Origin: Escherichia coli
GTDB taxonomy: Bacteria > Pseudomonadota > Gammaproteobacteria > Enterobacterales > Enterobacteriaceae
Length of the DNA stretch: 64,000 nucleotides
Assembly (NCBI RefSeq): GCF_003991155.1
Contig: NZ_CP031293.1
Reading direction: 5' to 3' (one strand)
Positions 14,685-33,706 of this stretch are shown piece by piece. A program made the position numbers and the translations under genes. The number at the start of each line of letters is the position of its first letter. Positions within the stretch are counted from its first letter, which is position 1. The notes under the pieces are model-generated. The model was not told the DNA's origin. It worked only from the letters and a program-made list of their open reading frames with translations, and made no database searches.

Positions 14685-16418
14685 ATGGAAATCATATTAC
14701 CAAAAAACACCTTATATGACAGAGAGCAAAATGTCTTTTTTGAAAAGGTTACGGCCTTAATTGGCGAAAATGGTGCTGGTAAGTCCTCGATTTTACAATC
14801 CGTATTTATTAACTGTTTAACAAAAAAATATCTACCAGAAACAAAGGTTGTTTGTTTTTCTTCTGGACAAAATGAGAAATACTCAACGTACTTCTCTGAT
14901 TATCTTTCTCATGAAAGGCAAGCAAATAGAGGTCTTAACTTAGATTGTTGTTATTACGATAAATCATGGTCAAAGTTACTAATATTCATATCCACAATTT
15001 GTAAATCAAATGGTCTTGTTAGAAATTTTTTATGTGAGAAAGGCTATATTGATGTATCAGATGATAAAAATGATGATATATCAAGCAAGCTTACATTGAC
15101 GGTCCGAGTAAATTCGGCTTACGTTAATCGAGTAAAAATGGCATTAGCACAAGAAGAACAAGGTATTGAAAATACTTTAAGGTATTCAGCTTATCATAGG
15201 ACTTTAGAAAGTTTCATTAATAATATTGTTAATGCTGATTATGATTTCGAGTCTCCACTTGAAGCTCAAGAGATCTTGCTAACTCATTCAAATTTTTTCA
15301 ATCCATCATTTGAGGAAGCAGAAGATTCCTTTTTTGATCCTATCATAACATTTTTCACTCAAGCAGCAGATAATGATTACTTTATAATAAAACCATCATT
15401 ACAGCTAGAGTTTAAAAATAATATCGAACTGAATGATATTAGTGATGGGGAATATCAAGTACTCTTTTTATACTCTCTGCTTGATATTTTTGATAGTCCT
15501 AATACTTTATTCTTATTAGATGAGATAGATTCCCATTTACATTACAAGAATATTGAGCTCTTATGGCATCGACTACATAGTATTAATGGTTATGCGATAA
15601 CAACCACCCATCTATTAGACTCAATTACAGCTACTGATAATGATTTTAAAAACTTAAAGATTGTTGATAAAGGAAAAATAAAAGAAGATGATAAAATAAA
15701 AACTATAATAGAACGTTTATCTGTCTTGACAAGAATATCAGACGTACAGTTCGAAGTGTGTCGTAAACTAGAAAACATAGTATTGATGGATGATTATAAT
15801 GATTGGACTATTTTTTATGCCTTAGCAAAGAAAAAAGGACTTGATGTATCAAAGTTAGATGGCCTCCATGCAATAAAACAGTCCTCTGGTTACGATAATT
15901 TAAATCAAGAGTTCGCAAAACCAAAAATAGAGTGGATTAATTCGCTTTTAAATGTAAATACTGATAAAAAAGTCAAAAGAATATTCATGATCTGCGACAA
16001 AGATGAGGCTCCAATTACCTATCAGAAAGATGGAGTTCAAGTCAATGGAAGTGAATATTCAAAACATATAGCGAAGTTAGAAAATAAAAACAAAAATAAA
16101 ATATATCTCCTTGCATGGAAAAGAAGAGAAATAAAAAACTACTTACTATCTTATACGGCATTGTCCCATCATGGATTTATCGAGCAAATAAACAATGGAG
16201 ATCTGCCAGCTAACAGTTATTTAAAAGAAAACGATCCTGGAGATAATTCAGCAATTAGCCGGCTTAACGTAAAACATTGCATCACAAAAATAATTGATTC
16301 TGATGGTATAGGATTAGATATATCAAAACTTTACTCATATATAGAACTTATACCACCTGCTGAGATCAGTGAAGATATAGTGAACATGTACAATTTTTTG
16401 GTGGAGAAATTAAAATGA
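14685..16418 (+). CDS. ABC-type (OLD/AAA_21-like) P-loop ATPase, 577 aa, with possible C-terminal TOPRIM/DUF4435-like nuclease region
   Basis: Walker A LIGENGAGKSS, signature-like ISDGEYQ, Walker B LFLLDEIDSHLH; C-terminal acidic motifs FMICDKDE and WKRREIKNYLL; very AT-rich; stop overlaps next gene start (ATGA at 16415-16418). Confidence 0.7.
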   Translation: MEIILPKNTLYDREQNVFFEKVTALIGENGAGKSSILQSVFINCLTKKYLPETKVVCFSSGQNEKYSTYFSDYLSHERQANRGLNLDCCYYDKSWSKLLIFISTICKSNGLVRNFLCEKGYIDVSDDKNDDISSKLTLTVRVNSAYVNRVKMALAQEEQGIENTLRYSAYHRTLESFINNIVNADYDFESPLEAQEILLTHSNFFNPSFEEAEDSFFDPIITFFTQAADNDYFIIKPSLQLEFKNNIELNDISDGEYQVLFLYSLLDIFDSPNTLFLLDEIDSHLHYKNIELLWHRLHSINGYAITTTHLLDSITATDNDFKNLKIVDKGKIKEDDKIKTIIERLSVLTRISDVQFEVCRKLENIVLMDDYNDWTIFYALAKKKGLDVSKLDGLHAIKQSSGYDNLNQEFAKPKIEWINSLLNVNTDKKVKRIFMICDKDEAPITYQKDGVQVNGSEYSKHIAKLENKNKNKIYLLAWKRREIKNYLLSYTALSHHGFIEQINNGDLPANSYLKENDPGDNSAISRLNVKHCITKIIDSDGIGLDISKLYSYIELIPPAEISEDIVNMYNFLVEKLK

Positions 16419-18322
16419 ACACCTCTTTATTTGAAGATCTACTTACACTAATCAAGAAAAAGAGTTCGATAAGGAATACAGAACAAGCAGTAGAGTTAAT
16501 TTCATTATTTATTTTTTTACATTATATAAAATTATATCTTTATGAAAATGATAAAAGATTTTCAGATATAAAAAACATATCAAGCAACAACATTAATGAA
16601 ATTAAATATTATTATCAGCAACTATATGAAAGTTTTATTTTCTCGATAGATATAAAAAATATAAACCACGACATGCTTGAAAAGCTCAGGAGTAAGATAG
16701 GTTTTTTAATTAATAACATCAATGACCATGAAATAATTAAATATATAGATTATTCTATTTCGCAGATACATTCACTTACAGAATTCTATCAATATGCAAA
16801 TTCTTATCAATCTTTAATTCTTAGGATGGTTAATGAATCGGGTCGTTCAGGTGAATATGTTACTCCATCTGCTTTAGTTCAGCTCATGGTTGAAATGTTA
16901 TCACCTACAGATGGCACATCAATCTACGACCCCGCATGTGGAACTGGGGGTTTATTAATAGAGTCAGCACGATATATTAAAGGCAACAGTTTAAACAAAA
17001 ACTTAAATTTAAATTATTCCCTTATTGGTAATGACACATCATCATTTGCCTGTCTAATCTCAATTGTTAACCTTTTAATCAATAAAGAATTTAATTTTGA
17101 AATAATACTAAAAGATAGCTTAGATATAAATTATAAGAATACAAAATATGACTTTATTTTAACTAACCCACCATTTGGGAAAAAGAGCGGTTGGGATAAT
17201 ATTCATATTGACACACATTATAAAGGACCTAATCTAGACTATTACTTCCTGGAGCATGTTATTGACTCTCTCGCTGTTAATGGCAAAGCAGCCATAATAT
17301 TACCAGAGCGTTTTTTATATGATGTGAGTAAAGAGTGCATCACTCTTAAAGATAAGATCTTCCAAAATTATAATTTAGATTGTATTTTATCTATACCGTC
17401 AGGTGCATTGCTTCCTTACACTGCAGTAAAATTATGTATTCTTTTTATAAGTAATCCTGGCCCAACAGATAGAATATTTTTCTACAATTTAAATAATGGT
17501 GAAAAATACTCACGTACAAATATTATAAAATTCGATGATTTTATAGATTTTTTAGAGTCAGCAAAAAATAGAACAATAACTGAACACTCCTGGATTATCA
17601 ATATTAGTGATACACCTTCATCTTATAACTTACTCTTAAAAGATAAAGAGCGAAACTCATATGAGTTTCTTAGTGATTCTATAGTTAACATTGAACAGAC
17701 AATACGTAATAATGAATTATTACTAACAGAGTTGTCTTTATTAAGAGAAAAAATAGCAATCTTAGAGTCAACAATAAAAAATCATTCGCATGAATATGAA
17801 TTTGAGAGACTTAAAGTTGGAAATATTGCAATAGTAAAATCCGGAAATTTATTACAAAAAAACAGGCTGTTACCCACTGGACCAATTCCTGTATACGGTG
17901 GAAATGGAGTTATTGGATATAACAATGAGGCAATGGTAAATGGTGAAAATATTATTATTGGTAAGGTCGGAGCTCTTTGCGGAAACGTTCGGTATGTTCA
18001 AGGTGATATTTGGGTGACAAATAACTCATTAATTATTAAGAATTATTTACCAAATAAAGTTTTAACACCCTACCTTGCAAAGTTATTATCTACTTTAAAC
18101 TTAAGAAAGCTCGCCGTTGGTACCGCTCAACAATATTTAACCACAACACAAATAAAAAATGTAGAAATTAGCATTCCACCTTTAACGACCCAGCATAAAT
18201 TAAATATGTGGCTTGATGAGTTAGATAATACCCTTGAACAATATAATAAGCTCATTGAAAAAATAATGAATGATAAGCGAGAACTTAAAGAGAATTTGTA
18301 TAAAGGTCTTTTAATAGAATAG
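16415..18322 (+). CDS. N6-adenine DNA methyltransferase (HsdM-like) fused to a single type I specificity (HsdS-like) target-recognition domain, 635 aa
   Basis: Motif I YDPACGTGGLL and motif IV LTNPPFGKK; C-terminal ~180 aa resemble an HsdS TRD plus conserved helix (...GKVGALCGNVRYVQGDIWVTNNSLIIK...); translationally coupled to the upstream ATPase. Confidence 0.75.
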   Translation: MNTSLFEDLLTLIKKKSSIRNTEQAVELISLFIFLHYIKLYLYENDKRFSDIKNISSNNINEIKYYYQQLYESFIFSIDIKNINHDMLEKLRSKIGFLINNINDHEIIKYIDYSISQIHSLTEFYQYANSYQSLILRMVNESGRSGEYVTPSALVQLMVEMLSPTDGTSIYDPACGTGGLLIESARYIKGNSLNKNLNLNYSLIGNDTSSFACLISIVNLLINKEFNFEIILKDSLDINYKNTKYDFILTNPPFGKKSGWDNIHIDTHYKGPNLDYYFLEHVIDSLAVNGKAAIILPERFLYDVSKECITLKDKIFQNYNLDCILSIPSGALLPYTAVKLCILFISNPGPTDRIFFYNLNNGEKYSRTNIIKFDDFIDFLESAKNRTITEHSWIINISDTPSSYNLLLKDKERNSYEFLSDSIVNIEQTIRNNELLLTELSLLREKIAILESTIKNHSHEYEFERLKVGNIAIVKSGNLLQKNRLLPTGPIPVYGGNGVIGYNNEAMVNGENIIIGKVGALCGNVRYVQGDIWVTNNSLIIKNYLPNKVLTPYLAKLLSTLNLRKLAVGTAQQYLTTTQIKNVEISIPPLTTQHKLNMWLDELDNTLEQYNKLIEKIMNDKRELKENLYKGLLIE

Positions 18323-18402: not shown

Positions 18403-21400
18403 TTAATAATGCTCCTCAATATACCCATACGCCTTCTGGAACAACTCTTTATCTTTCCCTAGTCCAAACTGGGCCAAGGTCAGTAAAAGCGCCTTTTGGA
18501 TTTCGCGCGGGCCACTGTTGGAATTTTGCCAGCCATCAAAGCGGGTAGCTTTCACAATTTTATCAATTTGCTCTACAACATCACCGATTAACTTAGGGGT
18601 AGTTTCCGGACGTGTTTCGAGGAAAAGCTTAGTCAACGCCTGTTTATTATCAGCTTCAGTTACTGGGCGCTCGCCCGTTTCGCGCTCGGCTTGAACGGTA
18701 TCTTTCGCTGCATCCAACAGGCCTTTCAACCAGTCAATGGCCTTGATAACACCAGCTTCATAGTCCTGACGCAGTTTTTCAAGGCGCTCGCCCAATGCCA
18801 CAAATTTAGGATCATGACTGCCGCGCAAACGTCCCATAAGATCAATCTCCAGGCGTTTGGCACGTTGTTCCTGCTCTTTAGCGGTCAGGGTAAAAATAGC
18901 GTGCTCGTCCATAACCAACTCGTCAATATCATCGCGAATACGATTGATATCAGTATGCTCATGGATCATCTTGATTGTTTCGGGGCCAAGGGCAGCCCAA
19001 ACAAGCGCACCTGTCTGCCCTACCGGACGCACCGATTCATAAATTTGCGCCAGCCATTTATAGTCCTGACGATAAGAGGTCAAAAAAGGATCTGGGTTGA
19101 TAGCTGACCATAACTTGGATAACACACCAAAGCTGGCAGCGAATTCATCGCGTTTCTCGTTGGTCGGCAGGCATTCCTGCGCGGCCATAATACCTTCAAA
19201 ACCAGCTATGGACCGATCCACACCAGGGAAGAAGGACAAACATTTATTCAGTTGTAACGGCAATAGCTCTTTAAATGCCTCAATTCCCTCTACAACTCCT
19301 TCAATTTCTTCAGGGTTATAGGCCAGAGCGGTACGCAGATTTTCGAAAACGCCGAGGTAGTCGATAATTAATCCCATGTCCTTGCGTACAGTATCGGTTT
19401 CGTACAACCGGTTGGTTCGGCACATGGCCTGAAGAAGAGTATGATCGCGTAGAGGCTTATCGAGGTACATGCAGTAGCAAATCGGGGCATCAAAACCCGT
19501 AAGCAGCTTGGCGGTTACGATAATAAGCTGTAATGGATGTTCAGGATCTTTAAAGCATTCAATCAGATCCTTTTGCACCTGTTCTTCGGCATCAATGTGC
19601 TGCCAGCGTTCAAAATCGACTTGTTTGACTGGCAGCTCCAACTCATCATGCCATTTAAGCCAATCCTTGTTGAGCTTGTCTTTTTTGCCACCCTCTTCAA
19701 CTTTAACCGGAGCCTGGTCAACGTTCATAACCACTTCAACCGCATCAAAACCAAGCTTTTCACCGAGCAAATAATACATCTGCACACAGGCTTCGCGATC
19801 GTATACCACAACCATGCCTTTCATCTTTTTCGGCATAACATGGTTGGTAAAATGCTCAGCAATATCATTACTCACCGCAGCCATACGCCTAGGGGATTTC
19901 AGCATGATTGCCAGCTTGCCTGCACGCCTGGACAATGCTGCTTTTTCTTCTTCATCCAGGTTGTTTTCGGTAGCCAGTTGCTCGAACTCTTCATTGATGG
20001 CATCACGATCCACTCGGAGTTCAGCCAGCCGAGGTTCGAACTTCACCGGGTTAGTTGCGCCATCCCGGATCGACTGCTTATAGCTATAGCGGCTCATATA
20101 GCGACCTGGATCTTCTTCGGCACCGAACAATTTGAACGTATTACGATCAATGCCAGAAATCGGAGTACCAGTCAGGCCATAGAAGTGGGCATTGGGCAAC
20201 GCCCAGCGCATTTTCTCGCCTAATCCCCCTTCCTGTGTACGGTGAGCTTCGTCAACCAACACAATGATATTGTCCCGGTTGTTCAGGCCATTAGGGTTGC
20301 TATCGTCAATTTCGATATCTTTAAATTTAAAGATGGTGGTGATTAAAATGCCACGGCTGTCTTGTTCTATGTATTCACCCAACTTTTTGCAGCTTTGCAC
20401 TTTAATCAGATTCTTAACGTCGGCTCCGCCAAAGGTCTCGTTAATTTGGCTGTCCAGATCTCGCCGGTCCACAACGATAAGTACCGTCGGGTTTTTTAAC
20501 GCATTATCGGCACGTAGCATTTTGGCGGCGTAAAGCATCAACAAGGATTTACCCGATCCCTGGAAATGCCAAATAAGACCTTTTTTTGGATAGCCTCTGC
20601 GAACACGCTCAACAATTTGTTTTGCAGCTTCAAATTGCGGATAACGCGGCAGGATTTTAACGCGTTTAGGTGGAGTATTTTTGCCCGTTTTGACGGTTGA
20701 AAATAATGCAAAAGATTCAAGTAACTGCAATAAGGTTTGTGGATTTAACAAACTCTCACAGCTGTTGAGTACCGATGCTAATCCCGGCAGAATTTCATCA
20801 CGAAGCTCAGTATTATGCCAGGGCCCCCAGTCTTTAACTCTGGCATTAATGGCACCATAGGCAAAGGTTTTTCCTTCGCTGGCAAAGCACAGCAAGTTAG
20901 GTACAAAGAAAGATTCAACATTTTTCCAGTAGTACTTTTTGCCACCCATGAAATCGGCAGCACCGTCTTGCCAGGTCACGCTGGGGCGTGTTGCGGTTTT
21001 AACTTCGCCCACTACTAGCGGTATGCCGTTCACATAAAGAACAATATCAAAATAGACTTCAGTGGCCGCGATATAGCGAACCTGCTGCGCCACCACAAAG
21101 TGGTTGTTCTCTATATTGTCAAAATCAATCAGATTGATGGTGATATGGTCGCCATTCTTACCAAAAGGCAAGGTTTTGTCGGCCATCAACCATTCCTGGA
21201 AGTTTTCATTGGCCTTTACCAAGCCGGTATGGCGGGCTTCTAAAACCACTCCTCGCAGTTTGTAAATGACCTCATCGGCATAGTCAGGCTGTCTGCCGAT
21301 ATCAGGGTTTAACGAACAAAGCGCGTCTTTTAGCCACTCATCAACGAAGATATCCTGCGCTTGTTTAGGCAGGTTTTCACCGTGGCAGTAAGTCCACTTG

Positions 21401-21465
21401 ACTCCGCTTAAACCTTTTAAACGGTCGATAATTCCATTTTCTGTGACGGTTTGTTCGTTAAACAA
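18403..21465 (-). CDS. hsdR: type I restriction enzyme R subunit (HsdR), 1020 aa
   Basis: N-terminal PD-(D/E)xK-like DIVLYVNGIPLVVGEVK; helicase motif I HFQGSGKS and DEAH box IVLVDEAHRTQ; directly follows hsdS. Confidence 0.9.
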   Translation of the reverse strand: MFNEQTVTENGIIDRLKGLSGVKWTYCHGENLPKQAQDIFVDEWLKDALCSLNPDIGRQPDYADEVIYKLRGVVLEARHTGLVKANENFQEWLMADKTLPFGKNGDHITINLIDFDNIENNHFVVAQQVRYIAATEVYFDIVLYVNGIPLVVGEVKTATRPSVTWQDGAADFMGGKKYYWKNVESFFVPNLLCFASEGKTFAYGAINARVKDWGPWHNTELRDEILPGLASVLNSCESLLNPQTLLQLLESFALFSTVKTGKNTPPKRVKILPRYPQFEAAKQIVERVRRGYPKKGLIWHFQGSGKSLLMLYAAKMLRADNALKNPTVLIVVDRRDLDSQINETFGGADVKNLIKVQSCKKLGEYIEQDSRGILITTIFKFKDIEIDDSNPNGLNNRDNIIVLVDEAHRTQEGGLGEKMRWALPNAHFYGLTGTPISGIDRNTFKLFGAEEDPGRYMSRYSYKQSIRDGATNPVKFEPRLAELRVDRDAINEEFEQLATENNLDEEEKAALSRRAGKLAIMLKSPRRMAAVSNDIAEHFTNHVMPKKMKGMVVVYDREACVQMYYLLGEKLGFDAVEVVMNVDQAPVKVEEGGKKDKLNKDWLKWHDELELPVKQVDFERWQHIDAEEQVQKDLIECFKDPEHPLQLIIVTAKLLTGFDAPICYCMYLDKPLRDHTLLQAMCRTNRLYETDTVRKDMGLIIDYLGVFENLRTALAYNPEEIEGVVEGIEAFKELLPLQLNKCLSFFPGVDRSIAGFEGIMAAQECLPTNEKRDEFAASFGVLSKLWSAINPDPFLTSYRQDYKWLAQIYESVRPVGQTGALVWAALGPETIKMIHEHTDINRIRDDIDELVMDEHAIFTLTAKEQEQRAKRLEIDLMGRLRGSHDPKFVALGERLEKLRQDYEAGVIKAIDWLKGLLDAAKDTVQAERETGERPVTEADNKQALTKLFLETRPETTPKLIGDVVEQIDKIVKATRFDGWQNSNSGPREIQKALLLTLAQFGLGKDKELFQKAYGYIEEHY

Positions 21466-21466
21466 T

Positions 21467-22633
21467 TTATTGTCCCCTCAGAAGAATATTCAAATAACTG
21501 GACTTGAGTTTACGAATTTTTTGAAGCCTTGATTTAGCTTCTCTATAACTGTTTTCGGCTAAATGTAATATATCCTTATATTTCCCAAGCTCTCTTGATG
21601 GTGGTATAACCATCTTCTGAGAATGTACATCGGCATCATTAACAGCCGGGAAACTTGTACCAACTGCCAAATTGGTTAATGAATAAGTGAATTGCTTCGA
21701 CAAAGTGAAATAATAAATAAAATCGGACAAATCATTTTTTGCCCTTAGAACAGTAAAACCTGTTGATGCTATTGAATCATTCAATATTTCAGACACATAA
21801 AACGTAGCTCTATGATTGGGTCTAACAGTGCTAACAACAATATCTTTTTCCTTAAGAATACGCCGAGCTCGGCTGGGGGCTTCAGCGAAATGGTATTCTT
21901 TAGGAGTATCGACAAAACCAGGAAAAGTCACTGAAGATATATCTATATACCTAATCAGCTTATTTTTATTGGCATCATTACTTAACAAGTCAAAATTAAT
22001 ATTTGATACATCCTTCAATCTAACTTTGTTATATCCAAATGGCAGTTTTTCTTTTCGATCAAATGTAGTCAACCGATCAATTAATCTTTGAAATAAATTT
22101 AATGCAGACCTTTCAGTCTCATTTGCACAATGTAATACTTGTTCGATTTTTTTTAAAGAATTTAAAAAATCAACTTGCAGATCCATTTCAGGAATAATAA
22201 ATTCCTGCTGACTTAAAACTTTCCATTTTATCGTTGGAGACAATGACCCCTCCGAAATTGCTACTGCACGATTCATGAAAGTATCAGACTGCATAATAAA
22301 GGGTAAAAACTCAGGTATTACAGTATTTGAATTTGCCTCCAGAACCATGGCATGAGCCGAACAGATACAATCCCAATCTGCTACCGCGACTTTACGTTGA
22401 TAAGCACGACGCTTACCAAAAATAATCTGGCCTTTTTTCACTAAAAGCTTCTGCCCTTCAACGTCACTGGGTGTACCATGACGTTTGATTTTCAGGCTGT
22501 CAGGGTCTAAATGCTCCAAACCGACATAAATTTCAAGGTCTGTCTCGCTCGGTTCCACTCGTTTAGAGATATGTTTAGCGATATCGCCAAACTTCACCAT
22601 TTGCCAGCCTTCAGGTAATTGCTGTTCTGTCAT
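21467..22633 (-). CDS. hsdS: type I restriction-modification specificity subunit (HsdS), two TRDs
   Basis: 388-aa protein with two variable regions separated by conserved spacer; second TRD coding region markedly AT-rich; abuts hsdM and hsdR. Confidence 0.85.
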   Translation of the reverse strand: MTEQQLPEGWQMVKFGDIAKHISKRVEPSETDLEIYVGLEHLDPDSLKIKRHGTPSDVEGQKLLVKKGQIIFGKRRAYQRKVAVADWDCICSAHAMVLEANSNTVIPEFLPFIMQSDTFMNRAVAISEGSLSPTIKWKVLSQQEFIIPEMDLQVDFLNSLKKIEQVLHCANETERSALNLFQRLIDRLTTFDRKEKLPFGYNKVRLKDVSNINFDLLSNDANKNKLIRYIDISSVTFPGFVDTPKEYHFAEAPSRARRILKEKDIVVSTVRPNHRATFYVSEILNDSIASTGFTVLRAKNDLSDFIYYFTLSKQFTYSLTNLAVGTSFPAVNDADVHSQKMVIPPSRELGKYKDILHLAENSYREAKSRLQKIRKLKSSYLNILLRGQ

Positions 22634-24133
22634 TTACTGCTCCACCTTGCTTTCAACGTTATATCCAAGCTCTGCAAGGCTCTGGAATAATTTATTAGTT
22701 TGCTTTTTCAACTGAGTACGGCTTACTTTCCACGCTTCAATCGCATGTTCAATATTATGTACTTCAGCGTTGTTTTGTGCTTGCACATACAGTGGAATTG
22801 AAAGGTTATAAAGGTTTTCTTTAATAGCTTCAATATTCACTAAAGAGGTTATATCGTTTTTTTTCTCCGGATTAAAATAAGCCTCGCATAATACCTCCAA
22901 ATCCTCATCGGATAAGCGACTATGAGCGCGTTCACGGGTAACATGCTCAACCCCGTTGATAAATAACACTTTATTTTTGCGTTCGGCAGGTTTATTGCAA
23001 TTAAGCACCACCACACAAGATTCCATCGGCGAGTTATAAAACAGATTTGGTCCCAAACCAATCACCGCTTCAATAATGTCCGATTCAATCACCTGTTTAC
23101 GAATGGCCTGCTCAGAATCACGGAACAGCACACCGTGTGGCCAGAGCATAGCAGCACGACCGGTATCGGGTTTTAAACTTTTAATTATATGGGTATAAAA
23201 AGCATAATCAGCGCAGCCCTGCGGTGGGACACCATAAAGATTTCGACCATACGGATCAGCAGCAAACTTGTCACGATTCCATTTTTTAATGGAGTACGGT
23301 GGGTTGGCAAAAATCACATCAAACTGCTTGAGCCGATCGTTTTCAATAAACTTTGGCTCAGCCAAAGTATCACCACGCAGCACATCAAACTCTTCAATAT
23401 CGTGCAGGAACATATTCATACGGGCGATTGCGGATGTCAGCAGGTTCACTTCCTGACCATAAAGGTGCACAGAGCGCCACTCTTCCCCTCTAGCACGCAG
23501 ATCCATCACTGCATTTAGCAACATCCCACCTGTGCCACACGTTGGATCATAGGCGGTTTCACCCGGTTTTAAGCCCATAATGCGCGTCATTAAATGCACG
23601 ACTGTTCGGTTGGTGTAGAACTCTGCTGCCGTATGACCGGAATCATCAGCGAACTTTTTAATCAGGTATTCGTAGGCCTCACCAAGATCATCCTGAGCGA
23701 CAGATTTAATGCCTAGCGGAATTTGACTGAAATGTTCAATCAGATCAGCCAGCAGATGATCGGGCAGGCGCTCTTTATTGGTCCACTGCGCATCACCGAA
23801 GACGCCATGTAAACGCGGATTATTGGCTTCAATTAGTCGAAGCGCATTCTGGATCGCTTCACCAATGTTTTTACTGGTATTGCGTACCTTTTCCCAACTG
23901 GCTTCAGAGGGAATGTTGAAACGGTGAAACATCGGCATGGCGGCATATTCAGCATCACCTTCATGGAGTTCCAGCGCTTCGTTATATTCTTCCAGATAGA
24001 CATCTGACAGGCGTTTGTAAAACAGCAACGGGAAGATATACTGCTTGTAGTCTGATGCGTCAATTTGGCCACGAAGAAATTCGGCGGCTCCCCAGAGCAG
24101 CTCTTCCAGCTTTTTATTACTCATAGTACTCAT
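22634..24133 (-). CDS. hsdM: type I N6-adenine methyltransferase subunit, paralogue B (499 aa)
   Basis: Motif I YDPTCGTGGMLL, motif IV FANPPYSIKKW; start overlaps stop of upstream hsdM paralogue (24130-24133). Confidence 0.85.
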   Translation of the reverse strand: MSTMSNKKLEELLWGAAEFLRGQIDASDYKQYIFPLLFYKRLSDVYLEEYNEALELHEGDAEYAAMPMFHRFNIPSEASWEKVRNTSKNIGEAIQNALRLIEANNPRLHGVFGDAQWTNKERLPDHLLADLIEHFSQIPLGIKSVAQDDLGEAYEYLIKKFADDSGHTAAEFYTNRTVVHLMTRIMGLKPGETAYDPTCGTGGMLLNAVMDLRARGEEWRSVHLYGQEVNLLTSAIARMNMFLHDIEEFDVLRGDTLAEPKFIENDRLKQFDVIFANPPYSIKKWNRDKFAADPYGRNLYGVPPQGCADYAFYTHIIKSLKPDTGRAAMLWPHGVLFRDSEQAIRKQVIESDIIEAVIGLGPNLFYNSPMESCVVVLNCNKPAERKNKVLFINGVEHVTRERAHSRLSDEDLEVLCEAYFNPEKKNDITSLVNIEAIKENLYNLSIPLYVQAQNNAEVHNIEHAIEAWKVSRTQLKKQTNKLFQSLAELGYNVESKVEQ

Positions 24134-25629
24134 ACCTCGAAACCTTCTTTGATAAGCAGGGCCTCCAGCTCCTCTTCTGCTTTTTCCAGCTCAGCCAGCT
24201 TCCGTTGAAAATCTTTGAGCGCCTCTTCCACAGTGATGGTTTCTTCTTCGAGTGGCTTTTGCACATAACGAGCAATATTTAGATTGAAGTCATTTTCTTC
24301 AATCTCCTTCAGAGAAACCCAGCGTGCAACGCCTTCGATTTCTTTTGCATCTGGCCCTTGTTGCGCCTGGTCATGATAGATTTGGTATATTTCATCGGCC
24401 TGCTTGTTGGACAGCGTATTCTGCGCACGTCCCTTGGTATAGATTTCTTCAGCATTGATGATCAATACATGATCTTTATGCGCGGCCGGACGTGATTTAC
24501 GCAGCACCAAAATACACGCAGGAATCCCAGTCCCATAGAACAGGTTGGAAGCAACACCAATAATCGCCACAATGCGATTCTCTTGCAGTAATTTGGTTCG
24601 AATTGCCCCCTCTGCGCCGCCACGAAACAGCACACCATGAGGTAATACGACTGCCATACGTCCATTGTCGTTAAGTGAAGCAAACATATGCTGCACCCAG
24701 GCAAAATCACCATTTGTTTTAGGCGCCAGGCCATATTGCTTACGGCCATAGGGATCGTTCGACCACAGATCGTATCCCCATTCTTTTAAGCTAAATGGTG
24801 GGTTGGCAACAACGCAGTCAAAGGTTTCTAAACGATCGCTTTTTAAAAATTTAGGTTCGCGTAAAGTATCCCCTCGGACAATATCGAAATCTTCCTGTCC
24901 ATGCAGGAACAGATTCATACGCGCAATAGCTTCCGTCGTTAAGTTCTTTTCCTGACCCTTGATTTTTAGTAAACGCGGATCACCACCATTTTCTTTTACA
25001 TGGTGGATGGTCTCAAGCAGCATACCACCGGTACCACAGGCGGGATCGTAGACACTCTCACCGGCTTTTGGATCAAGAATGTTAACCATCAAACGAACGA
25101 TAGTTCGTGGGGTATAGAACTCACCGGCTTTCTTATTGGCTTTGTCTGCAAAGCGTTTGATCAGATACTCGTATGCGCGCCCCATATCATCGTCACGGAC
25201 ACTAGAAACGCCAAGGTTCACCTTATTGAAGTGATTGAGTAACGTAGCCAGTAACTCATCAGAAAGGCGTTCTTTATTGGTCCAGCTGGCATCGCCAAAA
25301 ATGCCATGCAGTTTAGGGTTTGCCAGTTCTATACCACGGAAGGACTCTTTTAAAGCCTGACCGATGTCCTTGGTCTCAGCGAAAACATCGCGCCAGTGGC
25401 AATTTTCAGGTATCTGAATACGGTGAAACATCTTGCCCTTGGCAAGCTCTGCATCCCCAATGCTCTCCATCGCATCGGCAAATTCTTCGTCATACACGTC
25501 ACAAATGCGCTTGAAGAACAGGATGGGGAAAATGTACGTTTTGTAATCTGACGCATCAATGGGCCCTGTAATAATATGGGCTGCATGCCATAGATGGGCC
25601 TCGAGATCTTTTAGGTTAATCAGTGTCAT
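24130..25629 (-). CDS. hsdM: type I N6-adenine methyltransferase subunit, paralogue A (500 aa)
   Basis: ORF 24130..25731 trimmed to MTLINLKDLEAHLW; motif I YDPACGTGGMLL, motif IV VANPPFSLKEW; homologous over full length to paralogue B. Confidence 0.85.
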   Translation of the reverse strand: MTLINLKDLEAHLWHAAHIITGPIDASDYKTYIFPILFFKRICDVYDEEFADAMESIGDAELAKGKMFHRIQIPENCHWRDVFAETKDIGQALKESFRGIELANPKLHGIFGDASWTNKERLSDELLATLLNHFNKVNLGVSSVRDDDMGRAYEYLIKRFADKANKKAGEFYTPRTIVRLMVNILDPKAGESVYDPACGTGGMLLETIHHVKENGGDPRLLKIKGQEKNLTTEAIARMNLFLHGQEDFDIVRGDTLREPKFLKSDRLETFDCVVANPPFSLKEWGYDLWSNDPYGRKQYGLAPKTNGDFAWVQHMFASLNDNGRMAVVLPHGVLFRGGAEGAIRTKLLQENRIVAIIGVASNLFYGTGIPACILVLRKSRPAAHKDHVLIINAEEIYTKGRAQNTLSNKQADEIYQIYHDQAQQGPDAKEIEGVARWVSLKEIEENDFNLNIARYVQKPLEEETITVEEALKDFQRKLAELEKAEEELEALLIKEGFEV

Positions 25630-25872
25630 TGTTGTCTCTTTTCGATCCTGCAGTGCTTGAACTCTCAGCAACTCATGGATTTCACAGTAAAAAAGCAAGT
25701 AAAGCGATTCCACAACCACCTGAGCGTTCAATATGTATGACGCCTTTACCCAAGTTGCTTAAATCAAGGAAATTGCCAGAGATAATACTCTGGCATCAGA
25801 ATGATACCAAGTTGAAGGGCTGATTTCCGCATCAATACCTTGTGGTAATAGGGGATTACTCTTTTACCCTTA

Positions 25873-26910
25873 TTGGCGCAAAATGGCGGCATTTCCTCAT
25901 TTCTCCATCGGAGCATCTTACGCGCTATAACCACTCTCGTTTTTTCCTATTCCCATGCAGATGAAGCACTACGCAATGAACTTGAGAAGCATCTCTCCCC
26001 GCTGAAGCGAACCGGGAAGATCACAACATGGCACGATCGCCGCATCGTTCCTGGTCAGGAGTTCGAACGTCAGATCGACCACTATTTTTCGCAAGCAGAT
26101 ATCATCCTGATCCTGATCAGCAGTGACTTTATTGCTTCTGATTACTGCTATCAGGTAGAGATGAAAAACGCACTGGAACGGCATAACCGGGGCGAGGCAG
26201 TGGTCATTCCGGTAATTTTAAGAGACTGTGCATGGCATCAGTTAGAATTCGGCAGCATTATGGCGGCGACTATCGACGGTAAACCCATCACTAAGTTTGC
26301 CACCCACGATGAAGGCTACGTTCAGGTCGTCGAGGCTGTCTCGCGTGCCATTGCCCGGATGGAAGCCAAAAAACCACAGCAAACCATACATATCCCTTCA
26401 CCGGCTCCGGCGAATCCGATCTTTCAGGGAGTAGATTCCGTTTTTACACCGCGTTCAAGCAACCTTACTCTACCCAAGAAATTTACCGATCTGGATAAAG
26501 ATCGTGCCAGACGTGAGGGCTTTGAATATGTTGCCCGCTATTTTGAAAATTCGTTAGATGAACTCAAAAAGCGCCACCCCGGATTAGATATCGATTTTAA
26601 TCGGCTTGATACAGATTCATTCACCTGTGCCGTGTATATCAATGGCAGTAAGGTCGGCCAATGTGGCATCTGGCGAGGCAATCAACATCATGGAATGGGA
26701 GATATCTGTTATAGCCAGGATAATGTTGTTCGAAACAGTATTAACGAAACTCTAAGCCTTGCTGATAACGGCCAGACTCTTGGTTTTCGTGCTCTGATGG
26801 GAGGCTTCAGTCGAGGAACTTCACGAGACGAACTATTGACCAATGAAGGTATGTCGGAACATCTCTGGGAAATGTTCTTCGGGCTAATCAAGCAAAGAAT
26901 GTCCCGATAA
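25873..26910 (+). CDS. TIR-domain protein with uncharacterised ~180-aa C-terminal domain
   Basis: TIR-like N-terminus (VFSYSHADE..., WHDRRIVPGQEF, ADIILILISSDFIASDYCYQVEM with a Glu at the expected catalytic position); only in-frame start is TTG at 25873 and no clear Shine-Dalgarno, so the N-terminus is uncertain. Confidence 0.65.
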   Translation: MAQNGGISSFLHRSILRAITTLVFSYSHADEALRNELEKHLSPLKRTGKITTWHDRRIVPGQEFERQIDHYFSQADIILILISSDFIASDYCYQVEMKNALERHNRGEAVVIPVILRDCAWHQLEFGSIMAATIDGKPITKFATHDEGYVQVVEAVSRAIARMEAKKPQQTIHIPSPAPANPIFQGVDSVFTPRSSNLTLPKKFTDLDKDRARREGFEYVARYFENSLDELKKRHPGLDIDFNRLDTDSFTCAVYINGSKVGQCGIWRGNQHHGMGDICYSQDNVVRNSINETLSLADNGQTLGFRALMGGFSRGTSRDELLTNEGMSEHLWEMFFGLIKQRMSR

Positions 26911-26947: not shown

Positions 26948-27094
26948 GTGCTGTCATTATTGGCAATATCTCAATAGGCGTTGAGAAATGGTGCAATTTA
27001 ATCTTGCCAGAGCGCTGTTACTTGGGGACGAAATTAATGGGCTCCTGCTGTAGTTACAGCAACGCCTGTAAATACAAAAATAGGCGTTGCAAAT

Positions 27095-28150
27095 TCATGC
27101 TGGCAAATACGTTTTCTTAAGCGGCACCAATAGCTTAGTCTCTATATCCACTTGCTCATAGTTTTCAACTAACGCGCGTACCAAATCATCCAGCGTCCAT
27201 AGCGTCAACGGGATTGTAGAACGATCGGCCTCATAACGCGCATCCTTGCTGAATCCGCCGGTACTGACATACAGCCCGCGATCGTCTTTATGGCGGCCAC
27301 CGATAAAGCTACGGATTTGCTGGCTGCTCATCTGTTCCCGCCGGTGCTTCACCTCAACAATAATGCGCGGATTTTCAAACCCAAATCCGTCAGGCGAAGC
27401 AATGATGTCTTTCCCACGGTCAGCACCCGCAGGCGATACCTGAGTTTTATATCCCATGCTGCGTAACACGCCAGCGACCAGATTCTGCATCTCATCCCAG
27501 TCGAGACGGTTGATACGATCCTTGATGCCTTCAAAAGCGATCATTTCCATGTCGCGCAGAGGATTAGAAACGACCTCATCCTCTTCACCTGAAACAGGTA
27601 CTTCCGGCACGATATCTGAGACAGGCTTATTGCCCTGCACTAATTCATTCACAGCAAAATCAGGCACCTGAAAAACTGTCAGCGTTGAACCAAGGGTGTT
27701 TCTAGTTGCATCACTCAGACTATCGCGCTTAATCTCTTCCGCATTCCACTTCACTTTACGGGCGATGCCCATGCCATCTTCAAGCCACTCGGCATGAAAC
27801 TCAAAATCTGACGCTATTTTCCCTATTAAATAGGTCCGATTAGAAGGTGAATAAGTGATAGCCCAGTCGCCTTTCTGCATTTCATTCACAAAGCGCCAGA
27901 CCTGAGAAGCTCCAGAACGAACTGTGCCTGGCTTAGTCTGTGGCTCAAGCTCCTGATACCGGGTAAACAACTGCTCTCTTGAGCATCCAGGTTTCACATA
28001 GGGAGCGAGCTGCGACCAACCAATTGCAACAACCTGTTTGTCTCTGAAGTCGTCGTACAATTTTCCGCCATCACCGCGGATCATCCACATCTTAGTCGCC
28101 ACAATAATTCCTTCTGAAAATACTTCATCGTTATACCGGGACGTGATCAT
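27095..28150 (-). CDS. Mrr-family (PD-(D/E)xK) restriction endonuclease with N-terminal PUA/EVE-like putative modified-base reader; probable type IV enzyme
   Basis: C-terminal domain alignable with E. coli Mrr catalytic region (DIIASPDGFG...IIVEVKHRR...LYVSTGGFS); start set at ATG 28150 preceded by AAGGTGG; N-terminal RFVNEMQKGDWAITYS resembles EVE-domain core. Confidence 0.7.
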   Translation of the reverse strand: MITSRYNDEVFSEGIIVATKMWMIRGDGGKLYDDFRDKQVVAIGWSQLAPYVKPGCSREQLFTRYQELEPQTKPGTVRSGASQVWRFVNEMQKGDWAITYSPSNRTYLIGKIASDFEFHAEWLEDGMGIARKVKWNAEEIKRDSLSDATRNTLGSTLTVFQVPDFAVNELVQGNKPVSDIVPEVPVSGEEDEVVSNPLRDMEMIAFEGIKDRINRLDWDEMQNLVAGVLRSMGYKTQVSPAGADRGKDIIASPDGFGFENPRIIVEVKHRREQMSSQQIRSFIGGRHKDDRGLYVSTGGFSKDARYEADRSTIPLTLWTLDDLVRALVENYEQVDIETKLLVPLKKTYLPA

Positions 28151-28212
28151 TCCATTCAGCCACCTTATCCAGGGGAAAAACACCGATAAGATGGCTAATC
28201 AAAATGTCTGTT

Positions 28213-31200
28213 CTAAACCTGACGCCTATCAAGACTATTATAAATAGCCTCAATCTCACCTTTCAGGTTATCACCAGAGTAAACCATCGATGTATCGTAT
28301 CGTTCATATCGCGCTTCCCGTGTCGCACTAAACCAGTTGAACGATCCCACGCATAGCAAACCATCATCACCAATAACAATTTTGCTATGAACACGGTTTA
28401 CCAGCTTTGTAGCAATACCCAGCGCATTCAGTTTCTCCAGCGCCGCTTTAAGGTTCTGCTGCTTCTCTTTTCGCTTCTCAAAATCTTTATGTTCAGTGTT
28501 GTAGCTTCTGTCAGTGACTATCGTGACGTTAATACCACGTGAACACGCCGCAATCATGGAATCAAGAAAACCCGTTTGCTCCAGCTTTTGCCAGGTCAGC
28601 CATGGAGAAACTATCGTGATGTGTTTATCGGTATTTTCAAACGTCTGATTCAGGAAGTTATCATGCTGCTCCACACCATGAAGTGTGTAGATTTTGGTCT
28701 CGGAAGTTTTTAAATCCTTACGCTCTTTATAATCAAAAGAGAGCGCATTCTTCTCGAACTCAAAGAGATATTTTGCCAGCAATCCTCGCGGAGATGAGGG
28801 AGCCTGGATCTCAAACAGATCCATATCGCCGAAGACCAGGAAGCTATCCTTCGCACGGGAGACTGCAACATTCAGCATGCTGTTATCGCTATCAATAAAC
28901 CCGCCGTCTTCATGTTTTGAATAGACTGGCGAGAATATAACAATCGCTCTTTCCGCTCCCTGAAGAGAGTGCACGGTGCCCACTGTGAGCGACTTTTCAT
29001 TCGCGCCCGTACTGATACCTTGTTTACCCAGCGCCTGTTTTATAGTGGATACCTGCGCGCTAAAAGGCGTCACGATACCGACAACTTCATGAAGCGATTT
29101 GCCGTAATGCGCTTCAATATTTTGCTGGTTCTCTGCCAACCAGGCCGCTATCGTTTCAGCCTCAAGCAAATTATATCTACTTCCACTACTTGCCTGCTCT
29201 CCTTTACCATCAATATGGAGATAACCCATTGCGGGCATTAAATTGCTCTCTTCACGCCCTCTTTTAGGCAACAACTTACCGTGATAGCAGAGCGTATTAC
29301 AGTATCCAATAATATTATCGAAGCACCGGCGGTGTTCATATAGGTACATACCACGAGCCAGTTCGGGATCATATTGATAGCGCGAAGCAAACTGCGCTAT
29401 TTTCATAACGCTGCCAGATGCGGCACTTTTACCAAGGTCTGCGATTGCCGTATATTTCTCGGTAATCTCTTCTTGCGTACTGCCAGACAGAATTTTTTCC
29501 GCCAGCATGTTACCGACATCAATCGCGGGAGCAATACTCCATATTGGCGGGATCTGCTCCGTATCGCCAATCACTAATGCCTTCTTAGCTAATGCAAACG
29601 AGGCAGCAGCCACTTCAGGAAGCACCTGCCCGGCTTCATCGACAATGAGTAAATCGGCAAAATCATACAAATAACTTTTCTCGAATTTACGTTGTCCTTT
29701 GTGCTCACTTATCTGCATATTGCCGGGCAGCATATAGCATGTCATCACCACACATGGAGTGAGTTTCATTCGACGTTGCCAACGGGCGGTTACCCCTTTA
29801 GCGCCTTGTTTCTTCTTCTCTTCCTGCAGATCATCAATTCTGGCCATATCCATCAGCCAACGACCTTCCCAGTAGTGAGTCGTCAGTAAAAATGCAGGGA
29901 AGCGAATCTGCGTATCAGCCAGTTCATCGGCCTGTGAGAAGCTCAGTTCCTCGTCGCCCTCATACCCTAAATCAAATGCCAGCCTCTGCCACTCCTGAAC
30001 CGCCTGCTGTTCTTTAAGAACGATTTCATGGGCGGAGTCAATCTGCTGCCGGTATGTTGTTTGCTCGCGCTCAGCGGAATTGAGCAGCCCATCAATATTA
30101 CGTTCGATAGTTTCAGGATCAGACCACTGATTTCCTGCAATCAGCGCGCCTAATTTATCTTCGAGAAACAGCTGTATTTGGTACTGTCGCTTATTGCGAA
30201 CCGCCGGGAGCCAGGAAAATAATGAATAGATCAGTGATTCACCGGCGCGATATTTTTTCCATTCCGTTTTAGCACTCTTCAGTAGAGTGACTTTTTGTTC
30301 TTGTCCGGAAAGTAATTTATTTAAATTATCGAGATATTGCTCAATATCATTAGCAATAAGCTCACGCGCAGCCCGAATCTGGCTTAACATTTGCCATGTT
30401 GCGTTCAGTCTTATCAGTTGCTCGGATTTTGCTGCCAACTGACCATGCAGGAGTTCAATGATCTTTTCAGGGGATGAACACTCTTTTTCAGGAAAGGCTG
30501 CCTTAGCCTTCTCCAGATAAAACAGCAGTGCATCCTCTACATACTCTTTTGACTCAACCTGGGTGAAGAAATCTTCAGTTTGATATTTTTTGGCTGCCTC
30601 AGCTTTACGAGTGCTTGAGGGAAAATAAGCGCCGAAGCTTTTCAGCTCTGGCAACCATCGTCCGGCCATCGCACCTGAACCTTGCGAAAAGTCTTTCCCG
30701 AATGCCTCAATAATGTTCGTTACAGCCTGGTTATTCGTTGAAGTCGCGATAATAACCGGAGGCTCAGATTTTTCGAGAGCTGCTCTGGCCCACTGCGTGG
30801 CGATGATAGAAAGCACCAGCGTGGTTTTTCCGGTTCCCGGAGGTCCATTAACAGCAAGGATATCGCCATGTCTTGCATCCAGAAAATGGCTTAAGGCATC
30901 GCGCTGAGCCTTTGCCAGCGGAAACTTATCTCCGGAGTGTCCAAGCCTGTCGCTGAATTTTGCTCCTGGGGCCAGCAAAGACTCTGCAGCATGAACCTCT
31001 CGCGAGGCGAAGCGATTGAAGAGCGGCACATCCTTCTTGCAAACAAGCAGGTGATCATAAAGAGAAAGGATATGGAAACTGGCACCGCCAGATTGCGCCG
31101 TTTTAACAATATAACCGTGCTCAGCGAGTACATATTGCTCAGGATTTTTAATCCAGTCGCCGGCAACATTCTTCAGCAGCCTCTCTGAATCATCCAGATA

Positions 31201-31728
31201 TTGACGCCACTCCTGCTGCAAGGCTGCATATCGTGCTTCCCGTTCTTCATCCGTTTCGGCAGTCTTATCAATGCTGTCATCAAAGTTGATAGAGAACGAG
31301 GTATGGATTGTCTTGTATTTGTCATACTGCCCAATATCACCAATCGAAAATGCTCCTTTTGGCAAAGGTTCAAGCAGGTCTCTGGGAATGGAGGTCGCTG
31401 GCGTCGGATATAAAAAACCCTCACGGCTTAGCAAGGCTGGCGTCACTAGCGGGGTAACAATATCAGGTGCGCCTGCGGAACGGTCCTTACCATGCTGCAG
31501 TAACCGAAAATAAACTTTTGGGCGCAAGACGACATCGACCGTTTCGACATCGTCTTTTTCTCCCTCAAAAAATTTACTGACAATCGCTTCGTCAAGACGT
31601 CCCGCCGCTATCCCATGCCAGTGAGTGAAATTTTTGGCGTCTTTCCGTTCAAAACTGCCCTTTCCTGACTCAGCATCTGCAAGCGAGTTGCGCCAGTATG
31701 AGGCAAACCCTAAAGCATTTTCATCCAT
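28213..31728 (-). CDS. SF1 (Upf1/DNA2-like) helicase fused to C-terminal PLD-family nuclease, 1171 aa; architecture resembles type II Mokosh
   Basis: Walker [13 protein letters not shown], Walker [10 protein letters not shown], helicase motifs [16 protein letters not shown] and [12 protein letters not shown]-terminal HKD motif [20 protein letters not shown]. Confidence 0.75.
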
Positions 31729-32053: not shown

Positions 32054-32431
32054 CTATCGTTTTGTCCGATGCTTGCGAATAAAAGCATTCAAAATGTCGC
32101 CTTCACCATGCATGACAGAAAAAGAATATTCACATTCTTTCTTTATCAAGATTCCACATAATTCCTGGTGCAAATCAACATTAACTCCCTTTCCTTTCTG
32201 CGCTTTCTTCACACCGAGCTCACATGAACTGATTAATTCAACGTTACAGGGTTTCTTCAAACAATTCACACCATCAATTAAGCCATGGAGAATGCATCTA
32301 TTTGCGGTCGTATCACTGTAGGAGAAAGTCAGATATTTTATTTTTCCTTCGCATTCCAGCACAATTTCCGCCGAACCTTCACGTGTTGCAGCATCACAAC
32401 CTCCTGTTGAATATATTTTTACCATCTTCAT
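32054..32431 (-). CDS. small RNase HI-like protein (125 aa) lacking the catalytic acidic residues
   Basis: Alignable by eye with E. coli RNase HI (VKIYSTGGC vs VEIFTDGSC; TTANR vs TTNNR; NVDLHQEL vs NVDLWQRL) but D10, E48, D70 positions are T, I, S/C; good SD (AAGGGG) before ATG. Confidence 0.6.
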   Translation of the reverse strand: MKMVKIYSTGGCDAATREGSAEIVLECEGKIKYLTFSYSDTTANRCILHGLIDGVNCLKKPCNVELISSCELGVKKAQKGKGVNVDLHQELCGILIKKECEYSFSVMHGEGDILNAFIRKHRTKR

Positions 32432-33621: not shown

Positions 33622-33706
33622 TGGTGCCGAAGGCCGGACTCGAACCGGCACGTATTTCTACGGTTGATTTTGAATCAACTGCGTCTACCGATTTCGCCAC
33701 TTCGGC
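33622..33706 (-). tRNA. leuX: tRNA-Leu (CAA anticodon), 85 nt
   Basis: Reverse complement folds as cloverleaf: acceptor GCCGAAG.../...CTTCGGCACCA, anticodon loop with CAA, long variable arm; adjacent to ahr as in K-12. Confidence 0.95.

Follow-up and report, generated by a model that had tools for sequence, protein, structure and literature searches.

A DUF8426–Mrr_cat protein encoded in an Escherichia coli leuX island is a probable modification-dependent restriction endonuclease

The locus and its genomic island

The window analysed here, a stretch of 64,000 nucleotides, belongs to an E. coli chromosome, and the region under study is 100% identical in strain 2016C-3878 and others. It includes a variable island located at the tRNA-Leu(CAA) gene leuX (33622-33706), between the fim/nan genes and ahr. 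The gene of interest lies on the minus strand of this island and is called the reader-nuclease gene below; its RefSeq product, WP_086176906.1, is named 'restriction endonuclease'. The gene and its surroundings are organized as follows.

Approximately 14.7-33.3 kb: island carrying an AAA_21 ATPase and an N6_Mtase/S fusion, a type I restriction-modification (R-M) system, a TIR protein, the reader-nuclease, a helicase-PLD protein, a small RNase-H-like ORF and an HNH_2 endonuclease
18403-25731, minus strand: type I R-M operon (two hsdM genes, hsdS and hsdR), downstream of the reader-nuclease gene and on the same strand
18403-21465, minus strand: hsdR
25873-26910 (PGAP start 25927), plus strand: TIR-domain protein, matching PADLOC ThsB1 over its full length (E 2e-153)
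27095-28102, minus strand: reader-nuclease coding sequence, 335 aa, start GTG 28102, stop TGA 27097-27095
28213-31728, minus strand: MkoC (PADLOC, Mokosh type II), an SF1 helicase with a PLD nuclease, 1171 aa; upstream neighbour, not part of the system

The leuX island holds at least five independent defence modules. On its plus strand, at 14685-18322, a 577-aa AAA_21/SMC_N ATPase gene overlaps one for a 635-aa N6_Mtase and Methylase_S fusion; this defence-like pair lies in very AT-rich DNA (GC approximately 0.30). In the type I operon, two tandem hsdM paralogues (22634-24133 and 24130-25731, minus strand), both named 'subunit M' in RefSeq, overlap by 4 nt and are followed by hsdS and hsdR. 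A 125-aa ORF between MkoC and the HNH gene (32054-32431, minus strand), annotated as a hypothetical protein, is conserved together with the block in E. coli and matches RNase H below threshold (E 1.7e-4; 22.2 bits, cut-off 25.8).

The TIR gene is wedged between the reader-nuclease gene and the type I operon on the opposite strand. It encodes an orphan ThsB-like protein, since the island lacks any ThsA-like gene, and the protein also has a C-terminal region of about 200 aa of unknown function. This gene was considered as a partner of the reader-nuclease and rejected: the two are convergent, and the TIR gene is absent from E. coli E200139, which retains the reader-nuclease gene and the rest of the block. 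The HNH_2 protein was likewise rejected as a conserved partner, as the HNH_2 domain is all that the window protein and the Pseudomonas HNH proteins have in common (44% over 126 aa).

Start codon and flanking signals

The minus-strand frame that terminates at 27095 is open as far back as 28183, and the original prediction began the gene at ATG 28150. An alignment of homologues and a Shine-Dalgarno-like sequence point instead to GTG 28102. The signals and alternative starts considered were as follows.

28090 and 28084 (PGAP), minus strand: alternative ATG starts of the reader-nuclease coding sequence
28108-28114, minus strand: Shine-Dalgarno-like GAAGGAA, read directly, 5 nt 5' of GTG 28102
28156-28198, minus strand: 13-bp hairpin lacking a U-tract, within the 3' untranslated region of MkoC
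28237-28266, minus strand: sigma-70-like match CTGAAA-18-TATAAT (10/12), within the 3' end of MkoC
27061-27089, minus strand: 9-bp perfect inverted repeat GCAACGCCT/AGGCGTTGC directly after the stop codon, without a U-tract

All aligned homologues, drawn from many genera, begin with M-x-x-(K/R)-M-W-M-(I/V)-R-G, which corresponds to translation from GTG 28102 in the window (V-A-T-K-MWMIRG). The 16 codons from ATG 28150 to 28102 are without counterpart in the homologues. They overlap the hairpin, at whose foot ATG 28150 is located and which is part of the upstream MkoC module. A start at ATG 28084, as chosen by PGAP and RefSeq, drops six conserved residues, including a nearly invariant Trp of the first strand, and the RefSeq start of WP_086176906.1 is therefore probably six codons too short. 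With GTG 28102 as the start, the gene is separated from the MkoC stop codon (28213) by 110 bp rather than the 62 bp given in the original prediction, which was right in assigning both genes to the same strand.

Regulatory signals around the gene are sparse. Promoter and terminator scans around the reader-nuclease gene gave no excess of sites over shuffled sequence, and the sole sigma-70-like match upstream is not above the shuffled expectation. The hairpin falls within the part shared with E. coli genomes that carry MkoC only, and the overall folding stability of the intergenic region between MkoC and the reader-nuclease gene is not significant (z -1.4). Co-transcription of the two genes is possible, and the inverted repeat after the stop codon is a possible transcript end.

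The reader-nuclease gene is no chance ORF, as it has 2987 homologues (E<=1e-5), with 62-64% identity over beta- and gamma-proteobacteria. Relatives of the full-length protein occur in at least 213 species-representative genomes. The distribution is almost entirely chromosomal: homologues were found on 18 of 72,556 plasmids (archaeal ones included) and are essentially absent from phage genomes.

A nuclease domain preceded by an EVE/YTH-like domain

The protein consists of two domains separated by a linker.

27632-28099, minus strand: EVE/YTH-like domain of the PUA superfamily (Pfam DUF8426, PF28530), aa 2-157
27548-27631, minus strand: acidic linker between the two domains, poorly conserved and of variable length, pLDDT <50
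27173-27514, minus strand: Mrr_cat PD-(D/E)XK nuclease domain (Pfam)

The original prediction described the C-terminal half as an Mrr catalytic domain and the N-terminal half as an EVE-like domain in place of the winged helix of Mrr, and both descriptions hold. The domain HMM search that it proposed returned Mrr_cat above its cut-off, EVE only below its cut-off and no Mrr_N. The Mrr_cat family (PF04471) matches the C-terminal third with an E value of 2e-23 and 83.1 bits, against a cut-off of 21. Its catalytic Asp (codon 27409-27407, in GKDII) and Glu-Val-Lys (EVK, codons 27355-27347) are invariant in an alignment of 26 homologues. A weak Pfam match to the inactive NA-iREase1 family (24.1 bits) is under the cut-off of 27, no NCBIfam model matches the protein, and no Mrr_N match appears at E<=0.1.

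Searches of the Pfam and NCBIfam HMM libraries gave no significant match for the N-terminal half. The EVE-like core noted originally, RFVNEMQKGDWAITYS, is present and lies inside the only stretch with a weak EVE match, in which residues 68-124 align with positions 34-87 of the PF01878 profile (E 0.12). At 12.8 bits this match is under the Pfam cut-off of 23, which places the protein outside the EVE family at the sequence level. EVE is nevertheless the sole Pfam family with matches in two or more relatives: 7 of the 69 match it (best E 0.01). In precomputed annotations of homologues, a newer Pfam entry, DUF8426, spans the N-terminal region, and an exhaustive HMMER scan with the reader domain alone found 1628 representatives at 50% clustering. 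When the sequence and a 69-sequence profile of the N-terminal domain were compared with all PDB chains, the only match was the designed protein Rhobin9 (E 0.006), which was judged spurious.

The N-terminal domain was remodelled from a deeper alignment of 69 sequences (A2). The AlphaFold model has a pLDDT of 96.7 and a predicted five/six-stranded pseudo-barrel with a significant structural match: YTH domains rank top in Foldseek (E approximately 1e-4, TM approximately 0.5). Taken with the weak EVE matches, the model and this ranking place the domain in the EVE/YTH branch of the PUA-like superfamily, as a divergent member. Prokaryotic EVE-like and YTH-like domains often cannot be separated into EVE or YTH (Bell et al., PMC7641849). 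Nearly invariant residues of the domain are W5, R8, Y83, R88, Y90, R114, W118, R125 and D126 (model numbering), among which W5, Y83, Y90 and W118 are candidates for lining a modified-base pocket in the model. A model of the full-length protein is mediocre (pLDDT 72) and was used for architectural match only; its best PDB matches are two modification-dependent enzymes, MspJI (E 2.4e-7) and AspBHI (E 1.7e-5).

The same reader domain also occurs in other architectures. The N-terminal domain of McrB is a modified-DNA reader, and in protein P0238 DUF8426 is fused to AAA_5 and McrB_lid, and the end of the P0238 gene is overlapped for 4 nt by a gene for McrC. In a second protein, P0243, it is joined to GmrSD_N and Schlafen (SLFN) domains, and GmrSD is a type IV enzyme (PMC12707154). 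From these two fusions it follows that DUF8426 is interchangeable with known modified-DNA readers. Further occurrences are at positions 282-419 of the 857-position PADLOC model PDLC03448 ('Type II restriction enzyme') and in the phage protein family phrog_10226, a PHROG of unknown function.

MkoC is an independent neighbour

The original prediction left open whether the reader-nuclease gene is functionally linked to the helicase-PLD gene, and the distribution of the two genes speaks against such linkage. PADLOC recognizes MkoC as a complete single-gene Mokosh type II system, with a score of 1684 over its full length. In a set of 5426 complete E. coli genomes, 839 have MkoC (at least 80% coverage) and 119 have the reader-nuclease gene. 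In genomes with MkoC only, such as those of ST131, homology ends at window position 28148 and an unrelated gene follows. MkoC itself resides in different tRNA islands, at tRNA-Phe in ST131 and at leuX in the window. Outside E. coli, MkoC lies near a relative of the reader-nuclease gene at just one of 80 species loci (in Citrobacter, 98% identical), so that the gene does not show the consistent co-occurrence with MkoC expected of an additional Mokosh type II component.

A two-gene system formed by the reader-nuclease and MkoC could account for their shared strand, the 110-bp gap that lacks a canonical terminator and the retention of the MkoC junction by all 119 full-length E. coli copies. A second lineage also pairs the two, as in GCA_009765475.1 an MkoC fragment is fused upstream of an 83%-identical homologue of the reader-nuclease. 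However, the deletion in that genome destroyed MkoC and kept the reader-nuclease part intact, and together with the unequal genome counts, the loss of homology at 28148, the single species locus and the single-gene status of MkoC in PADLOC, this makes a two-gene system highly improbable; distribution has already largely refuted it. The adjacency thus reflects inheritance of one island block rather than a functional requirement, and the helicase-PLD gene is a Mokosh type II system that acts on its own and is autonomous in most E. coli genomes. The fused ORF of GCA_009765475.1 (L009, 8001-9596) encodes 531 aa, with MkoC residues 223-415 (77% identical) in frame with the intact homologue, and it lies beside BREX (PglZ) and GmrSD genes.

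Association with type I R-M systems

To survey the neighbourhood of the family, all ORFs around 80 species-representative loci were clustered without use of annotation. The commonest neighbours were HsdM (33), HsdS (29) and HsdR (28), all confirmed with Pfam. An hsdM gene lies at most 400 bp away and co-oriented in 26 of the 80 loci, and in 24 of those it is directly downstream, in the order reader-nuclease, hsdM, hsdS, any inserts and hsdR. The gaps between the reader-nuclease gene and hsdM measure about 17-70 bp, hsdM has its own Shine-Dalgarno sequence, and at least five different junction sequences occur. The reader-nucleases of these type I-adjoining loci have a median identity of 81.5%, whereas the adjacent HsdM proteins have a median identity of 26% and form eight groups at 60% identity, with a correlation of 0.12. 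The window keeps the same order on one strand (reader-nuclease, hsdM, hsdM, hsdS and hsdR), with the TIR gene interposed.

This arrangement might mean that the reader-nuclease is coupled to the neighbouring type I system, as a back-up nuclease made from the same transcript and either checked by the Hsd complex or complementing it. Two models offer parallels: PrrC, at the EcoprrI locus, is freed upon phage inhibition of the type I enzyme, and BREX with BrxU pairs methylation-based and type IV defence as complements. Besides the frequency of the juxtaposition, the unequal conservation of the two partners and the order retained in the window, coupling is favoured by a fold near YTH, as type I enzymes make m6A, and by the likeness to K-12, in which mrr also adjoins hsdR. 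We nevertheless consider coupling unlikely. Five loci belonging to the same island family have an SNF2-type system, not type I R-M, as their closest neighbour (downstream or upstream), and enterobacterial relatives are found where CP4-like islands end, behind radC-cbeA-cbtA, and lack type I R-M. The pattern therefore also fits a conserved arm beside a variable cargo hotspot. Four distant family members, whose reader domains are 34-40% identical, have no hsd neighbour (three of them on contigs of only 1.8-5 kb, and one of the four located between hisA and hisF), and in E. coli E200139 the gene sits beside a DUF1156/PLD system with no type I R-M. Furthermore, a generic m6A reader would attack the type I- and Dam-methylated DNA of its own host.

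The simplest reading of these loci is a conserved island arm (integrase, HTH protein and reader-nuclease) next to a cargo hotspot that is usually filled by type I R-M. Beside mnmE, genes for a P4-type integrase and a small HTH protein are frequent in type I-adjoining loci. In the mnmE-adjoining islands L039-L072 (for example L045, 6290-10819), the arm comprises a P4-type integrase, a small HTH protein (HVO_A0114/MarR-like) and the reader-nuclease, and the variable slot holds either one of at least eight unrelated type I R-M lineages or a system of an SNF2 protein (about 1000 aa) with proteins of 1189 and 510 aa.

A more committed version of coupling, which we regard as quite improbable, holds that the reader-nuclease is a dedicated type I R-M partner, placed as the co-transcribed first gene before at least eight unrelated HsdM lineages, that senses methylation state or retaliates. 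Its YTH/EVE-like domain would sense methylation made, or failing to be made, by the type I enzyme; alternatively, the protein would serve as a retaliatory nuclease once phages disable type I restriction. If true, the protein would be a new accessory layer of type I R-M and not a type IV enzyme that stands alone.

Proposed function

Because a nuclease domain is joined to a modified-base reader domain in front of it, the protein is very probably a restriction enzyme for modified foreign DNA. The reading that we favour, and consider likely, is that the protein is a modification-dependent (type IV) restriction endonuclease made of a single polypeptide, and that genomic islands carry it as cargo. 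The probable type IV assignment of the original prediction is strengthened by the domain swaps with McrB and the GmrSD_N protein. In this proposal, the EVE/YTH-like domain would scan DNA and flip a modified base into its aromatic pocket. The flexible acidic linker would tether the Mrr-type PD-(D/E)XK domain (D...EVK), which would cut the DNA near the recognized base, probably as an oligomer as in MspJI. Likely targets would be hypermodified phage bases or foreign methylation patterns, and no methyltransferase would be needed, because the host would lack the target modification. E. coli typically carries Dam and Dcm methylation; as 119 E. coli genomes have an intact copy of the gene, the Dam (GATC) and Dcm (CCWGG) marks are presumably not targets.

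Genomic context agrees with an enzyme that has no cognate methylase. No methyltransferase family is common to all contexts of the reader-nuclease: adjacent methylases are part of unrelated type I (eight HsdM groups) or type III systems, which come with nucleases of their own, and many loci have no adjacent methylase at all. The neighbours of relatives include type III R-M, many unrelated type I R-M systems, SNF2 systems, CbtA/CbeA island ends and BREX/GmrSD. The protein also matches the PADLOC defence candidate PDC-S02 (PDLC04819, E 6.9e-82), with residues 1-331 aligned to profile positions 5-330 of 334. In one cold-seep survey, PDC-S02 was among the 12 most abundant defence-system types (10.1101/2024.09.26.614923).

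Several observations count against the type IV reading. A PDC-S02 representative from the cold-seep metagenome was cloned and does not figure among the four candidates for which protection against T4, T5 or T7 is reported (10.1101/2024.09.26.614923), in a test that used no hmC-only or methylated phages and for a type that comprises several HMM subfamilies. The EVE HMM match is below threshold, and a family member with 40% identity resides within a histidine-biosynthesis operon rather than a defence island. The tight and frequent juxtaposition with type I R-M could mean that the reader-nuclease does not act alone. In addition, EVE and YTH domains read modified RNA too.

These points bear on a further alternative, in which the PUA-like domain binds RNA, damaged DNA or a DNA structure, and the protein is a toxin, an abortive-infection, selfish or housekeeping nuclease with no modification dependence. 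RNA binding is the main known role of YTH, EVE, ASCH and PUA domains, and YTH is the top Foldseek class for this domain. The histidine-operon member, P0152, lies between hisA and hisF on at least 21 contigs, and the negative PDC-S02 phage test and the weak NA-iREase1 match would likewise fit. Such a role is rather unlikely, however, as the catalytic D...EVK is intact and invariant, the nearest structural relatives among nucleases are DNA-modification-dependent enzymes, the domain swaps involve DNA type IV contexts, and the window copy resides in an island packed with DNA-directed defence genes. The P0152 gene itself (L094, 6001-7023), which encodes DUF8426 and Mrr_cat, overlaps hisA at its start and abuts hisF at its end, and there is a stand-alone EVE (PF01878) gene at a distance of 2 kb.

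Should the favoured type IV prediction hold, modified-base reading would be established as the function of DUF8426, and PDC-S02 would count as a validated defence gene. MspJI and AbaSI serve as reagents for mapping DNA modification, and a new EVE/YTH-type reader on a simple nuclease could serve in the same way.

Comparison with known systems

E. coli K-12 Mrr (EcoKMrr) resembles the reader-nuclease in several respects. Both are single polypeptides with a C-terminal Mrr_cat PD-(D/E)XK domain and no cognate methylase, and both are chromosomal neighbours of a type I hsd operon, the position of the reader-nuclease being reminiscent of that of mrr beside hsdR in K-12. However, EcoKMrr has a winged helix (Mrr_N) where the reader-nuclease has an EVE/YTH-like domain, and the two are not orthologues.

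Other enzymes also bear comparison. MspJI and AspBHI (PDB 4F0Q and 4OC8), like the reader-nuclease, combine an N-terminal reader of the PUA superfamily with a C-terminal PD-(D/E)XK nuclease, but the MspJI family is defined by an SRA-like reader, which the reader-nuclease lacks. The VcaM4I/TspA15I group of modification-dependent endonucleases (EVE-HNH, PDB 6YEX, PMC6765204) uses an HNH nuclease, whereas the window protein uses an Mrr-type PD-(D/E)XK domain; the VcaM4I reader is 11% identical to that of the window and passes as EVE, whereas the latter is filed apart as DUF8426. McrB proteins with YTH/EVE-like N-terminal domains (T. gammatolerans 6P0G and S. marinus 6N0S) are GTPase motors that act with a separate McrC nuclease, in contrast to the reader-nuclease, in which the nuclease is fused and no NTPase is present.

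Our literature searches found nothing for DUF8426 and no experimental work on the DUF8426-Mrr_cat family, and for named EVE-Mrr fusions they found only the paper by Bell et al. That paper describes, computationally, EVE-PD(D/E)XK fusions of an identical architecture class and predicts them to be type IV enzymes (Bell et al. 2020, PMC7641849); the class is also described in PMC6765204. In PADLOC, the protein is matched over its full length by the HMM of PDC-S02, an unvalidated candidate. Since an EVE-like reader joined to a PD-(D/E)XK nuclease has already been described (PMC7641849, PMC6765204), the protein is predicted to belong to a known class rather than to a new kind of system, and the reader-nuclease is thus a new, uncharacterised member of a widespread class that has been predicted computationally.
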